A DNA stretch of 64,000 bases. Source: a virus. Position numbers and translations under genes: made by a program. Numbering within the stretch: the first letter of the stretch is position 1; the number at the start of each line of letters is the position of its first letter. The notes under the pieces are model-generated. The model searched no databases and was not told where the DNA came from. It saw nothing but the letters and a program-made list of their open reading frames with translations. The stretch lies in IMG/VR virus record IMGVR_UViG_3300027754_000060, positions 1 through 64,000 of that record; one strand, 5' to 3'. Shown piece by piece: positions 31,737 through 38,315 of the stretch.

Positions 31737-33410
31737 ATGATGACAAAAAATAAATTAAAAATTCTAATGGTTTCCGAGGCTAGTTTTTTAAGCTCAGGAT
31801 TTGGGACATATGCTAGAGAAGTATTGTCTAGATTACATAATACTGGAAAGTACGAAATAGCTGAATTCGCCTCGTATGGGCTGGTAAATGATCCGAGGGA
31901 CAAAGATATTACCTGGACTTATTATGCCAATGCTGTAAGGGAGAACGATCCAAGACATAAGGAATACTCTTCTAGGAGCGACAATCAATTCGGTAAGTGG
32001 AGATTCGAGAAAGTTTTGCTGGATTATAGGCCAGATGTTGTGGTCGACATTAGGGACTATTGGATGAGCGCATATCAAGCATCTTCTCCTCTAAGACCGT
32101 ATTTTCACTGGTGTTTAATGCCAACAGTAGACTCAGAACCACAACAGGAAGAATGGATAGATACCTTTTTGGGAGCAGATGCTATTTTTACTTACTCAGA
32201 TTGGGGAGCAGATGTTCTCAAAAGACAAAGCTCTGGTAAAATAAAGTATATTAGCACAGCATCGCCAGGAGTAGATCTGTCTGTTTTTAAAATACAAGAT
32301 AAAAAAGAGGCAAAAAAAATACTTGGAATTCCAGAAGATAGTATTATAATAGGCTCTGTTATGAGAAATCAGAAGCGAAAACTCCTACCAGAACTTTGCC
32401 TAAGCTTTAAAAAAGTCTTGACTGAGCTTCAAAACTCAAATCCAGATCTTGGTAAAAAGATGTATCTATACCTTCATACTAGCTATCCAGACATGGGTTG
32501 GGATTTGCCGGAACTTCTAAAAGATAACGGCATAGCTAATAAAGTTTTATTCACAAGTATTTGCAAACAATGCAAATATATTCATGCTGCCACTTTTGCT
32601 GGACCTCTGAAGATTTGTCCCAAATGCTTTACTAGAGCGTCATCGTTTCCGTCTGTGACTGATGGAGTATCCACTAAAGATCTAAGCACTATATATAATA
32701 CTTTTAATCTCTATGTTCAATATGCTATCTGCGAAGGATTTGGAATGCCACAAGTTGAAGCTGGTGCATGTGGAATACAGATAGCTACTGTTGGATATAG
32801 TGCAATGATAGATGTTATAAATAAGATTGGGGCTAAATCAATAAGTGTCAAATCATACTTTAAAGAACTAGAAACAAAAGCAATCAGAGCATACCCTGAT
32901 AATGATGAGCTTGTACAATATATTTTAGAGCAGATCAAAATACCTGAGCACATATTAGAAAAAAATAGACTGGAAACACGAAAACTAACGGAGCTTCACT
33001 ACAATTGGGACAATACAGCTAAAAAATGGGAAGAGTATTTTGATTTGTTAGACAACAGAGGATTTAGATCAGACTGGGATAAAGCTGCCAATATCATGGA
33101 CTCTTTGATAGAATCCCCAAATGATTCTGATCCAAGTAAAAATTTTGAGTATGTAGTTTATTTATGTGGAAAAAAGCTTTTAAATTTATCAGCAATTGGA
33201 TCCGAAAAATTCCTATCTATGCTAAAAGATTCTGATTATGGATATAGCCAAGTTTCCCCGACACAAATAACTCAGTATTCCTATTCGCATATTACCGATT
33301 ATTTGAGGCAGCATATCGAGAATAATAACCAGGCGGAACAAGTAAGATCTAATAAGACAGAATTTCAAGATGACTTTATATACTACTCTAAGATGAAAAA
33401 TCAATCATGA
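31737..33410 (+). CDS. GT-B (GT4-like) glycosyltransferase with an inserted zinc ribbon
   Basis: SGFGTYAREV, RNQKRK and EGFGMPQVEAGACG; CKQC...CPKC. Confidence 0.9.
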   Translation: MMTKNKLKILMVSEASFLSSGFGTYAREVLSRLHNTGKYEIAEFASYGLVNDPRDKDITWTYYANAVRENDPRHKEYSSRSDNQFGKWRFEKVLLDYRPDVVVDIRDYWMSAYQASSPLRPYFHWCLMPTVDSEPQQEEWIDTFLGADAIFTYSDWGADVLKRQSSGKIKYISTASPGVDLSVFKIQDKKEAKKILGIPEDSIIIGSVMRNQKRKLLPELCLSFKKVLTELQNSNPDLGKKMYLYLHTSYPDMGWDLPELLKDNGIANKVLFTSICKQCKYIHAATFAGPLKICPKCFTRASSFPSVTDGVSTKDLSTIYNTFNLYVQYAICEGFGMPQVEAGACGIQIATVGYSAMIDVINKIGAKSISVKSYFKELETKAIRAYPDNDELVQYILEQIKIPEHILEKNRLETRKLTELHYNWDNTAKKWEEYFDLLDNRGFRSDWDKAANIMDSLIESPNDSDPSKNFEYVVYLCGKKLLNLSAIGSEKFLSMLKDSDYGYSQVSPTQITQYSYSHITDYLRQHIENNNQAEQVRSNKTEFQDDFIYYSKMKNQS

Positions 33411-34423
33411 ATATTTTATATATTGGACCATACAGACAATTAGATATGTGCGGGACACACTCCTTTGCAATTTTACAAAAACTGCTAAAAATTCCAGATA
33501 TCAATGTATCATCAAGACCAATTTATATACAAAACAATACGACTGATTCAATAAATAAAAATATCTCGAAAAGAGAAGTATTTAATGCTGAACATCAGAA
33601 ATTAGATCATTATGACACAATAATACAAAACGTTCCAATAAAATGGTTCTGTTCAGATCTTAGATTTAAAAACAATATTTTTATACCTATTCTTGACAGT
33701 GAGAATTTTTTTGATGAAGACGTACAGAAACTAGAATATTGCGATAAAATACTCGTCGATTCGGACTACTCACAATTAAGGTTTAATGCAATAGGTCTAA
33801 AGGACAAAGTACACAGATATGTTTTATCTACAGAGCCAGATATCATAACAGATTTGTTTGGCACTACCGTTGACAAAAAAATGGATCTAAAGATATATAA
33901 TAGTTTTATAAAAATATATACTATAGTTAACTATACGAAGGATACAGATATTATTCACGATACGATTATTTCTTTTCTGTCTACCGAGAAGAGATCCAAC
34001 TGTTGCTTTGTTCTGTTTTTACTGAATTTTAATCAAGATGAATCAACTAGACTTTCAGAGTTTCTCTCTCTGGTGTACCAATCTTTAAACAGGACTATGA
34101 TTTTTCGAAAAGTGCTGATGGTGCCAATAGATGCTAACATAGAGAATCTATTGGCTGCTCATAAGACAGGAGACATATTCTTAAATATCGGAGCAGCTAG
34201 CTATGATAGCCTAAATGAAATGCTATGCTCCTCTGCCAATAGTCAATTTGTGTCAAGTAAAAACTCAGATTTCACAAGGCCCAATATCCAAAATAACAGA
34301 CTAAGCCCAGTAGGATACTCAATCACTGAACATGAAAACTTCTTTTCAACAAGCGACTCTTCTGCCACTCTAACGAACAATGCTTTTTCTTCATCAAAAC
34401 TAGAAACTCTCATATGTCAATAG
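33407..34423 (+). CDS. divergent GT-B-like protein
   Basis: MNILYIGPY start, CDKILVDS and HKTGDIFL; no E-x7-E motif. Confidence 0.55.
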   Translation: MNILYIGPYRQLDMCGTHSFAILQKLLKIPDINVSSRPIYIQNNTTDSINKNISKREVFNAEHQKLDHYDTIIQNVPIKWFCSDLRFKNNIFIPILDSENFFDEDVQKLEYCDKILVDSDYSQLRFNAIGLKDKVHRYVLSTEPDIITDLFGTTVDKKMDLKIYNSFIKIYTIVNYTKDTDIIHDTIISFLSTEKRSNCCFVLFLLNFNQDESTRLSEFLSLVYQSLNRTMIFRKVLMVPIDANIENLLAAHKTGDIFLNIGAASYDSLNEMLCSSANSQFVSSKNSDFTRPNIQNNRLSPVGYSITEHENFFSTSDSSATLTNNAFSSSKLETLICQ

Positions 34424-37126: not shown

Positions 37127-37854
37127 CAAAAAAGATACTTGTTCAAAATGCCGACAATAAGTTTATTAATAATTTATCCATAAGTCAGCTTTCTCCGCCA
37201 ATACAGAGAATGGTTAAGACTATTCGAGATGACCTATATAAGACATTTTATAGTTATAGATTTGAATCGATTATTCTAGTTGCTTCTTTGCTTAATCCAG
37301 AATCAAAACAATTTATTCTAGAATATCATGGTGAAGTTAATATAATGATATATGATGATATTAATGGGGCAATTATTGATGAAGATATAAAGAAAGTCTG
37401 CAAGATTTTAAGGAATAAAGCAAAAGATACGAATAAGAGTAAAGATAAGGGCGAGATTTCCATACCAAGACTACTAAATCAGGATATTTTTAAAGCAGAC
37501 AACAATGTTACCAAAAAATCTCAAATAGCAGTCTTCTTGGATGGAATAAATATACTGCCAGACACTTTGATGGAAAAATATCTTCATCCCTTTTCTGACC
37601 TGAGCATAAAAATGTTTAACAACACCTTAGTATCTCACTGCCAAAATCTAGGCAATGTACCAGAGAAAGGAAAAGCAAAAATACTTCAAGAGTCCGAATT
37701 CTACTTATGTCTCACAGAAGAATATTTAGCAGAAGCCTGGTCATGTGGATGCAAAGTTTTAGACATAAAGGAATTAGACAACCTTATTCCAAAAAAATAT
37801 GCCGTACCACAGACTTATCAATCTTACTCTAATTTTATAAAAAATATTATATGA
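37123..37854 (+). CDS. divergent GT-B-like protein
   Basis: NLG...E...A.ILQESEFYL...YLAEAWSCGCKV resembles a GT-B C-terminal motif. Confidence 0.5.
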   Translation: MTKKILVQNADNKFINNLSISQLSPPIQRMVKTIRDDLYKTFYSYRFESIILVASLLNPESKQFILEYHGEVNIMIYDDINGAIIDEDIKKVCKILRNKAKDTNKSKDKGEISIPRLLNQDIFKADNNVTKKSQIAVFLDGINILPDTLMEKYLHPFSDLSIKMFNNTLVSHCQNLGNVPEKGKAKILQESEFYLCLTEEYLAEAWSCGCKVLDIKELDNLIPKKYAVPQTYQSYSNFIKNII

Positions 37855-38315
37855 CAACTACCAGAAACATAGGGTTCATACTACCCAAATTATCCAACCA
37901 TGTTTTTTTTACAGACCTATTTAAAACAATTCATGAATTTATAGAAAAAAACCCATTTGACCAAATAGTCATATTTAATAGCTTTTCAGAAATAACCCAG
38001 CCTCTTAATATTCCCATATTCCATCTTAGCCATGCTCAATTTTTTACCGGGGATCTATTTTTATTTGATATAATTAGTGCGATACTAACAAAATCTTTTC
38101 CAAGAGCAAACAATAGATATATCTACGCCCAAGATGTTCCTTGGATGACCAACCCAGGAGTAGCTTATTCTGAGTGGTTAGAGATATATGGCCAAGATAA
38201 TCTAGAGATTATAGCGAAGAACAAAGATCTTTATGACCTGTATCATAAGTGTTGGAAGAAGCCAAAAGGAATTTCAGAAAGTTTTAAATATGAAGAAATT
38301 GCACAAATTATATGA
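37851..38315 (+). CDS. hypothetical protein, possibly a GT-like N-terminal half
   Basis: YIYAQDVPW; coupled gene within the cluster. Confidence 0.55.
   Translation: MTTTRNIGFILPKLSNHVFFTDLFKTIHEFIEKNPFDQIVIFNSFSEITQPLNIPIFHLSHAQFFTGDLFLFDIISAILTKSFPRANNRYIYAQDVPWMTNPGVAYSEWLEIYGQDNLEIIAKNKDLYDLYHKCWKKPKGISESFKYEEIAQII

Follow-up and report, generated by a model that had tools for sequence, protein, structure and literature searches.

An eight-gene island of lake phages with one canonical GT4 enzyme and seven motif-less followers: a candidate multi-subunit glycosylation machine

What would a phage do with eight overlapping genes that resemble sugar-transfer enzymes, when only the first of them keeps the residues by which such enzymes are recognized? 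This question is raised by a gene cluster in a stretch of 64,000 nt (positions 1 to 64,000 of the IMG/VR virus record IMGVR_UViG_3300027754_000060, hereafter the window), which belongs to an uncultured lake phage represented by a 97-kb fragment (completeness of about 67%). The eight genes, designated g1 to g8 in their order (Table 1), follow one another with successive overlaps of 4, 10, 11, 4, 8, 4 and 4 nt, and the coordinates of the open reading frames (ORFs) thus bear out the run of eight genes joined by 4-11 bp overlaps that had been described in a first-pass annotation made from the letters of the window. A Shine-Dalgarno sequence was visible before g1 only (GAGGAA), while g2 to g8 were preceded by AT-rich sequence lacking such a signal, which fits translation by reinitiation. 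Moreover, the G+C content was 26-30% in g3 to g6 versus 34-36% in the genome, and a hydrophobicity check found no segment of transmembrane level in any of the eight proteins. The answer that we favour, tentatively and with somewhat less than an even chance of being right, is that these genes form a conserved, translationally coupled glycosylation island, encoding a multi-subunit cytoplasmic machine with pseudo-enzyme partners that probably acts on virion proteins.

To begin with, a scan of IMG/VR with g1 gave a total of 45 loci, about 40 of which had a conserved gene order and nearly equal protein lengths, with the cluster located between ssb and a nuclease-like gene. The identity to the window was 55-85% for the flanking genes and 38-64% for g1, while it was only 21-49% for g2 to g8. 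The ratio of non-synonymous to synonymous substitution rates (dN/dS) was 0.02-0.15 for each of the eight genes in close, unsaturated genome pairs, such as L015/L017 (dS of about 0.3-0.6); the global medians were saturated (dS above 1.2) and misleading, and only close pairs were used. Furthermore, dN accrued 2-3 times faster in g2, g3, g4, g5 and g7 than in g1 and the flanking genes. As synteny and lengths are kept and dN/dS is low, all eight genes are real and constrained, besides being fast-evolving. The full open frames reported by the first-pass annotation are therefore real genes, and the check by dN/dS and synteny that it had proposed returned purifying selection and no relaxed selection. 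The patchy loss that it had named as a sign against its reading was found in part, since one sub-lineage has only g1, g5 and g6 and another has moved g5.

The first of these sub-lineages (L034-L038 and L147), which includes a complete genome of 138 kb (G005), holds only g1, g5, g6 and a small ORF in the slot, and g1, g5 and g6 are the core trio across the lineage. The jumbo branch adds g2, g3 and g7 (GT4-derived), g8 (half of a GT-B fold) and g4 (a stripped methyltransferase fold). In two genomes of the second (G001 and G003), g5 appears outside the island, separated by a few genes from the giant tape measure gene downstream of it, and no PHROG or Pfam annotation was obtained for its new neighbours. 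The g5 family comprised 1803 representative clusters at 50% identity and the g6 family at least 686 metagenomic homologues, and none of 50,697 phage records yielded a protein match to g6. No relatives at the DNA level were found among cultured phages. Identity with the published 'moraphages' was considered and is not shown, as those have PolB and T4-like structural genes and the present lineage a split DnaE. Furthermore, in distant relatives the slot gains a GT2 gene, Glyco_trans_1_2, three NAD-dependent epimerase/dehydratases and a GT25-like gene, together with FkbM and rhamnosyl-O-methyltransferase-like genes, and these enlarged islands retain g1 to g6 and g8. The addition of canonical enzymes at the slot marks it as a glycan island of variable content. 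A second glycan locus was also found in relatives (G001 and G005), which in G001 comprises a canonical GT4, a GT2, a DegT-type sugar aminotransferase and a gene resembling inosine monophosphate dehydrogenase/GMP reductase; it is absent from the 97-kb record of the window. As a separate observation, in locus L041 g2 and g3 are separated by four additional genes, coding for an aldehyde dehydrogenase, a protein like dimethylarginine dimethylaminohydrolase/amidinotransferase, a class-III aminotransferase and an enzyme of the saccharopine dehydrogenase family, a set reminiscent of a side pathway, polyamine or amino-acid-derived, that feeds into the island.

Among the eight proteins, g1 was the only one with a Pfam match above threshold (Glycos_transf_1, PF00534, 29.8 bits versus a cut-off of 26.4). 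It also matched phrog_2170 (E 8e-25, residues 8-435) and, in a profile search of the PDB, BshA, GtfA/Gtf1 (4pqg and 5e9t) and other GT4 enzymes. The two glutamates of the E-x7-E motif (E333 and E341), R210 and K215 were invariant in 29 homologues, also in those of the cultured cyanophage S-CBS4 and Tetrasphaera phage TJE1, the phosphate-binding motif being RNQxRK. Judged by these residues, g1 is a canonical glycosyltransferase (GT) of the retaining-type GT4 family. Compared to the S-CBS4 and TJE1 enzymes, it is longer by a CxxC...CxxC insertion (C276-C297) and by about 110 aa at the C-terminus. A segment resembling the single-stranded-DNA-binding protein PC4 (6ycs, E 7e-4, residues 77-119) is probably a chance match, because the segment (FG...PDxVxxxxDxW) is common to the N-terminal domains of ordinary phage GT4 enzymes.

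The remaining GT-B-type proteins have lost the signature to different degrees. Full-length g2 gave weak PDB profile matches to PBCV-1 B736L (E 0.004, the best solved structure) and WbaZ, and its profile found canonical Pfam GT4 proteins elsewhere in G001 (E 2e-14) and G005 (5e-20). When aligned to g1 by hhalign, it kept the phosphate-binding lysine and lacked both glutamates of E-x7-E, its invariant residues being D70, Q74, Y171 and H252. The C-terminal half of g3 was homologous to the donor-binding domain of g1 (hhalign probability 88%, E 3e-6), and the matches between g3 and g7 (80%, E 1e-5) and between g7 and g1 (66%) indicate that g3 and g7 are shortened paralogues. In g3, an aspartate occupies the first glutamate position of E-x7-E and the second glutamate is lost; its PDB profile search gave a weak match to the C-terminal part of BshA (E 0.047). 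A kinship of g3 with the DnaB helicase was rejected as an artefact: the profile had drifted over the iterations after a phmmer match due to composition, and the g3-only profile has no DnaB match. On its part, g7 keeps only the second glutamate, within EAxxCG, and has P156, H172, N175 and G177 as invariant residues; no PDB or Pfam match was obtained for it, and a word-indexed homologue search found three proteins that added nothing. Finally, the AlphaFold2 (AF2) model of g8 (predicted local distance difference test, pLDDT, of 91.5) is a single Rossmann domain followed by the terminal (return) helix. Foldseek on the PDB matched it to WaaG with a probability of 1.0, and VIA aligned 143 residues to GT4 enzymes (chain residues 0-353) with a Z of 12.6 and a root-mean-square deviation (rmsd) of 2.9, with BshA, PimA and WaaG next, while a fold search of BFVD gave weak generic viral GT-B matches only. 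The model has no donor-binding domain and hence one of the two Rossmann domains of a GT-B enzyme, by which g8 alone cannot be a complete glycosyltransferase.

A similar loss was observed in the other three proteins. The AF2 model of g4 (pLDDT 93.3) is a compact class-I methyltransferase core, and Foldseek and VIA returned only methyltransferases (top-50 VIA Z of 9.8-11.6, the best over 122 residues with an rmsd of 2.4). The Gly-rich loop of motif I (GxGxG) after strand 1 was absent from 25 homologues, the helix that follows strand 1 is missing from the model, and only K61 and G66 were invariant, so that g4 probably does not bind S-adenosylmethionine (SAM). The N-terminal domain of g5 has four invariant cysteines and is zinc-ribbon-like, and its profile positions 88-231 matched residues 2-139 of the TarS GT-A domain in the PDB (5tze, E 2e-5). 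Among 51 diverse members, none of which had a Pfam match, only the four cysteines were invariant: the DxD position was variable (KANN, DAKN, KPEQ and others), the aspartate after strand 2 was also unconserved, and the GT-A half had no conserved acidic residue. For g6, the PDB profile search found LicC (1jyk, E 3.7e-11) over profile positions 20-222 (203 positions) and, more weakly, PntC (6pd1, E 0.005). The loop TKGMKSxGxK replaces the GxGxR(x)nK signature, and the LicC motifs IDAD and EID, whose aspartates we take to be metal-binding, align to xxGxL and IxK, respectively. Thus, both of these positions are non-acidic in g6, and the aromatic box that presumably binds choline in LicC is absent; M15, K16, S17, G19, G54, F55, G141, F187, E188, N191 were invariant.

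Overall, the profile and structure comparisons agree with most of what the first-pass annotation had read from the letters. Its claim that g1 alone keeps canonical motifs holds, as E-x7-E is invariant in g1 and signature residues are lost in the other seven, and the folds are related to glycosyltransferases, nucleotidyltransferases and methyltransferases, as the fold searches it had suggested would have to show. The three or four GT-B genes correspond to g2, g3 and g7 (GT4-derived) and to g8 (half GT-B), the methyltransferase fragment without SAM motif I to g4, the possible GT-A to g5, with its TarS-like half lacking a conserved DxD, and the nucleotidyltransferase without GxGxR to g6, which is LicC-like over its full length. 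Two of its statements needed amendment. The absence of E-x7-E applies to g2 and g3 and only in part to g7, which retains the second glutamate; and the fold classes were right with the GT-A-like gene being g5, g7 being GT-B-like and g8 being half of a GT-B, not a separate class.

Table 1. Coordinates of the cluster genes and of the other features mentioned in the text; positions are those of the window unless preceded by the handle of a related genome or locus.
Feature	Position	Strand	Length	Description
g1	31737-33410	+	557 aa	GT4 (GT-B) glycosyltransferase
g2	33407-34423	+	338 aa	Full-length GT4-derived protein
g3	34414-35301	+	295 aa	Shortened GT-B-like protein
g4	35291-35707	+	138 aa	Stripped class-I SAM-methyltransferase fold
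g5	35704-36453	+	249 aa	Cys4 domain and GT-A-like half
g6	36446-37126	+	226 aa	LicC-like nucleotidyltransferase fold
g7	37123-37854	+	243 aa	Short GT-B-like protein
g8	37851-38315	+	154 aa	Stand-alone GT-B N-domain
GC-rich extended hairpin	31680-31733	+		Between ssb and g1; core stem 31702-31723
Nuclease-like gene	38233-39093			NUMOD3 and DUF559/Vsr-like; later start possible at 38290
Second glycan locus	G001:128541-133443 (L059)			
Second glycan locus	G005:114018-115154			
Four-gene insert	L041:12785-17452			Between g2 and g3
DnaE C-terminal half, split again	L147:2884-5767			
Thr/Pro-repeat giants	6711-11873; G001:45476-51226; G001:150230-152302			FGE-sulfatase/lectin-like head
Prepilin-type gene	2132-3217			DUF1559 domain

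In the glycosylation machine that we favour, g6 or host enzymes would supply a nucleotide-activated sugar or phospho-alcohol, g1 would perform the committed transfer onto a cytoplasmic macromolecule, and the motif-less proteins would be non-catalytic or non-canonical subunits holding the acceptor or the growing glycan, while g2 and g7 might still add further sugars; reinitiation at the 4-11 nt overlaps would lead to stoichiometric co-production. A multi-subunit machine is favoured because one intact GT4 is accompanied by motif-less, translation-coupled partners, as in the GtfA/GtfB/Asp1/Gly system. The first-pass annotation had proposed either a highly diverged pathway or a complex of pseudo-enzymes, which is consistent with seven followers that lack canonical residues under purifying selection and with this precedent. 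Regarding the acceptor, we favour one or more phage structural proteins (virion glycosylation) over DNA, this being the least secure step. A protein target is suggested by the relocation of g5 to the tail-gene block upstream of the tape measure gene in G001 and G003, by accessory enzymes of the deoxyhexose/O-methyl type and by an island with no membrane or export component. In addition, the distant g1 homologues of S-CBS4 and TJE1 adjoin portal, capsid and terminase genes, in loci that also hold methyltransferase, nucleotidyltransferase and epimerase genes. The window also encodes a protein of 1720 aa with about 600 residues of (T-x-T-P)n tracts, and three to six Thr/Pro-repeat giants each were found in G001-G003 and G013 (in G001, 2/3 within the fibre module). 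Such giants were present in G000-G003 and G013 and in neither of two minimal-cluster genomes, and the first six genomes fitted a rule linking giants and cluster (four with both, two with neither). As an obligate substrate, these 'mucin-like' giants were rejected, G009-G012 having the full cluster and no giants.

Several points weigh against this interpretation. The activity, the complex and the acceptor are predictions from sequence; the loss of textbook motifs does not prove inactivity, as GT-B enzymes have no universal motif; and the invariant MKSxG loop of g6, together with its other invariant residues, looks like an active site. The 'tail block' of the relocated g5 is defined by collinearity with the tape-measure region alone, the co-occurrence of a Ser/Thr-rich repeat protein and the cluster fails as a general rule in the nearly complete G009-G012, and the cluster RNA pieces of low depth described below could also come from DNA carry-over. 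Moreover, the frame of replication genes around the island is kept in every relative, those with small genomes included, the Cys4 modules of g1 and g5 are of a kind frequent in nucleic-acid-binding proteins, and the arabinosylation clusters of RB69 and DLP3 likewise consist of three BshA/PimA-like GTs, a LicC-like nucleotidyltransferase and kinases (PMC13326640). One alternative, which we regard as somewhat unlikely, is an ordinary, very diverged pathway with eight active enzymes (several glycosyltransferases acting in sequence, a methyltransferase and a nucleotidyltransferase) and no pseudo-enzyme, the motifs having drifted past recognition in a fast-evolving AT-rich phage. Each gene being under purifying selection agrees with it, as do the family-specific invariant residues of g2, g6 and g7, the phosphate-binding lysine kept by g2 and the nucleotide-ribose glutamate kept by g7; besides, GT-B families other than GT4 lack E-x7-E. 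However, g8 has no donor-binding domain at all, g4 has neither the SAM-binding loop nor the helix, the GT-A half of g5 has no conserved acidic residue, g6 has lost both metal-ligand positions, and the relatives that need more chemistry take canonical GT2, GT1 and methyltransferase genes. Even so, several members might be active by non-canonical chemistry.

The other alternatives concern the target. The location between ssb and nuclease genes had been read by the first-pass annotation as fitting DNA hypermodification, in which case the GTs would decorate a hydroxylated base of the phage DNA, g6 would supply the activated sugar and the nuclease-like gene product would attack unmodified host DNA. 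This we consider unlikely, even though the island follows DnaB, primase, deoxynucleoside monophosphate (dNMP) kinase, exonuclease, split DnaE and SSB and precedes the NUMOD3/DUF559 gene, and the best solved match of g5, TarS, is near the TarP/JGT-like class of GT-A enzymes that glycosylates 5-hydroxymethylcytosine. For known glycosylated bases, the starting point is a hydroxyl introduced by a ThyA homologue or by TET/5mYOX, and these base-hydroxylating enzymes are usually clustered with the GTs (PMC13326640; bioRxiv 10.1101/2023.12.21.572611). The search for a hydroxymethylase or TET/JBP gene that had been recommended found none: PF00303 (ThyA, dCMP/dUMP hydroxymethylase and 5-hydroxycytosine (5hoC) synthase) did not appear in the window's own record or in nine relatives, eight of which were at least 90% complete, nor did Tet_JBP (PF12851) and C5-methylase (PF00145) in the own record or in four complete relatives. 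ThyX was present in the four complete relatives, and dCMP deaminase, dUTPase and ribonucleotide reductase (RNR) in the window, which implies an ordinary dTTP supply and normal deoxythymidine (dT). Moreover, g5 lacks the R...DDD...EDY/F motifs of the GT-A enzymes acting on DNA, and the deoxyhexose-type epimerases and O-methyltransferases of the relatives are more typical of surface glycans. Strong, lineage-specific avoidance of palindromes was found in 7/7 genomes (G000-G003, G005, G009 and G010): GTCGAC occurred 0 times versus 20-21 expected, CTGCAG 0 versus 19, and AACGTT and CCATGG 0 versus 15, while TGCA and AGCT were down to half of expectation, ACGT and GCCGGC were also avoided, and so was GGATCC in the window genome. 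Such avoidance is expected for restriction-sensitive DNA, and that of palindromic restriction sites argues against global DNA protection. Hence, the proposed hypermodification is not supported, neither in its enzymes (no ThyA type, TET/JBP or C5-methylase) nor in the palindrome counts. In itself, the palindrome pattern looks like a record of host restriction systems. A related idea dispenses with the ThyA/TET hydroxylase and takes the core trio as a new multi-subunit machine modifying a nucleic acid or a replisome-associated target, with the extra pseudo-GT and methyltransferase subunits as readers or scaffolds. We give it a small probability; the trio would then comprise a Zn-ribbon GT4, a Cys4/GT-A-like pseudo-enzyme and a metal-site-less protein of LicC fold, with considerably more than a thousand sequence clusters from aquatic phages. 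It is just as improbable that a host envelope precursor or another host molecule (lipopolysaccharide (LPS) core, lipid-linked intermediates, a teichoic-acid-like polymer or a small molecule) is remodelled in infection to exclude superinfecting phages or to evade defences. Structurally, g8 and g1 are indeed closest to GT4 enzymes (WaaG, PimA, BshA and MshA) that are peripheral to the membrane and have lipids, LPS or small thiols as substrates, g5 resembles TarS and g6 resembles LicC, which both decorate teichoic acid, and the second GT4 of G001 reaches the Pfam family 'GT4-conflict' at threshold. However, the island has no flippase, polymerase, lipid-carrier priming transferase or membrane protein, g6 lacks the choline-binding aromatic box of LicC, and serotype conversion is typical of temperate phages, while no integrase was seen here, although no systematic integrase search was made.

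The region between ssb and g1 bears on the expression of the candidate glycosylation island. It contains a GC-rich hairpin (Table 1), whose outer stem pairs with the g1 Shine-Dalgarno sequence, and at the equivalent site most relatives have a GC hairpin of different sequence with a T-run behind it; the element is likely a terminator or attenuator as well as a translational gate for g1. In a lake metatranscriptome, the ssb contig (depth 94.5) stops at 31679, and contigs of two further studies stop at 31677 and 31679, followed by adapter sequence, while one RNA-library contig reads through the hairpin. These ends at the 5' foot of the stem suggest a defined 3' end or processing site and downstream attenuation. 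RNA-library pieces identical to g1, g2, g3, g5/g6, g6 and downstream genes had depths of 2.5-6, and their k-mer depth in the lake RNA libraries was far below that of ssb; contig depths are crude measures, and island parts without RNA-library contigs are not evidence of silence. Thus, the contig data fit a transcript attenuated after ssb and an island expressed at a low level. A scan for sigma-70 promoters found matches no commoner than in shuffles.

Upstream of the island, the genes on the same strand code for dCMP deaminase, RNR, dUTPase, PhoH, a RecA-like protein, DnaB and primase and, nearer to it, for the T4-type dNMP kinase, the exonuclease, the split DnaE, whose proofreading subunit is encoded between the two halves, and SSB. 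In L147, as an aside, the C-terminal DnaE half is split again, two ORFs matching G000 29581-31212 with another ORF between them. Of the flanks named in the first-pass annotation, ssb was confirmed (phrog_44), while the nuclease gene downstream has weaker support: the gene 3' of the cluster matches NUMOD3 and DUF559 below the Pfam cut-offs, and its best PHROG is an HNH/homing-endonuclease family (3e-10). Translation of this gene probably begins at the second ATG, given that the long ORF shares 83 nt with g8. As a further observation, the gene belongs to the fixed core: it has 52-64% identity across 30 relatives, invariably adjoins the 3' end of the island and behaves like a domesticated nuclease more than a mobile element. 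Two conserved genes without assigned function follow, and then a converging late operon with giant fibre-like proteins and the giant tape measure. The Thr/Pro-repeat giants of the window and of G001 have a head resembling the formylglycine-generating enzyme (FGE)-sulfatase family or lectins, and a (T-x-T-P)n linker that runs for hundreds of residues, with beta-propeller or Cys-rich modules also found. Elsewhere in the window, a phage gene combines a prepilin-type N-terminal methylation motif with a DUF1559 domain. This prepilin-type family is hugely expanded in Planctomycetota and Verrucomicrobiota, and the gene may hint at the phage host.

Glycosylation encoded by phages and other viruses is already known for DNA (T-even phages and RB69) and for virions (mycobacteriophages and giant viruses), with recognizable enzymes. 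In the present case, most proteins of a module retained by a very abundant lineage of lake phages derive from enzymes but lack the catalytic residues expected of them, and the island holds several Pfam-orphan families, the g5 and g6 families having no Pfam model. If these proteins are pseudo-enzyme subunits as proposed, the GtfA/GtfB/Asp arrangement would have an equivalent in viruses, which would also be a source of new modules binding glycans or acceptors; if they are active, they would represent new sequence families of glycosyl- and nucleotidyltransferases. In either case, an island of variable content probably shapes how these phages are recognized in nature.

When set beside known systems, the island shares single features with several of them. 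The split GT-B enzyme Alg13/Alg14 offers a parallel for g8, a separately encoded Rossmann half beside g7, which keeps the donor-side EAxxCG. Unlike in that enzyme, g8 is an N-domain with the return helix, resembling a GT-B from which the C-domain has been deleted, and the order is C-like and then N-like. Phage DNA glycosylation clusters (the T4 alpha- and beta-GTs, the poly-arabinosyl-5hoC clusters of RB69 and DLP3 and the GTs associated with TET/5mYOX) also have multiple BshA/PimA-like GT-B enzymes, and those of RB69 and DLP3 share with the island a LicC/MurU-like nucleotidyltransferase and a location near nucleotide-metabolism and replication genes (PMC13326640), a T4-type dNMP kinase being nearby here. 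In contrast to them, no ThyA homologue or 5mYOX was found in the lineage genomes searched, g5 lacks GT-A catalytic motifs and the genomes avoid restriction palindromes.

Virus-encoded virion glycosylation has been described (PMC11571054), and is also taken up in the discussion of the moraphage paper, which cites Freeman 2023. Mycobacteriophage capsid and tail-tube glycans, the chlorovirus PBCV-1 GTs B736L and A075L and the mimivirus fibril glycan clusters all resemble the present case in having their own soluble GTs, sugar-nucleotide enzymes and sugar methyltransferases, with a content that varies among relatives, and the best solved match of g2, B736L, belongs to the PBCV-1 capsid glycan system. 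Unlike these systems, the island, known here from its genes, ends a replication string instead of lying in a structural operon, and most of its members are degenerate, not canonical, enzymes. In the glycosylation of streptococcal serine-rich-repeat adhesins, GtfA (GT4) is the catalyst, and substrate or glycan is bound by inactive GT folds, namely GtfB, Asp1 and the GT-A/GT-B domains at the N-terminus of Gly (bioRxiv 10.1101/219105). The phage island differs from that system (GtfA/GtfB, Nss, Gly and Asp1-3) in having no accessory Sec system, and its LicC-like protein, methyltransferase fold, half GT-B and Cys4 modules have no streptococcal counterpart; the sequence kinship is at the level of the GT4 family only, and, as opposed to the streptococcal repeat substrate, repeat proteins are absent from four full-cluster relatives. 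Nevertheless, both are cytoplasmic (as predicted here) and operon-encoded, the PDB profile matches of g1 include GtfA/Gtf1, several relatives have giant Thr/Pro-repeat proteins, and in both one GT4 is accompanied by partners of GT-B and GT-A fold that, to judge from the sequence pattern here, have lost their catalytic residues.

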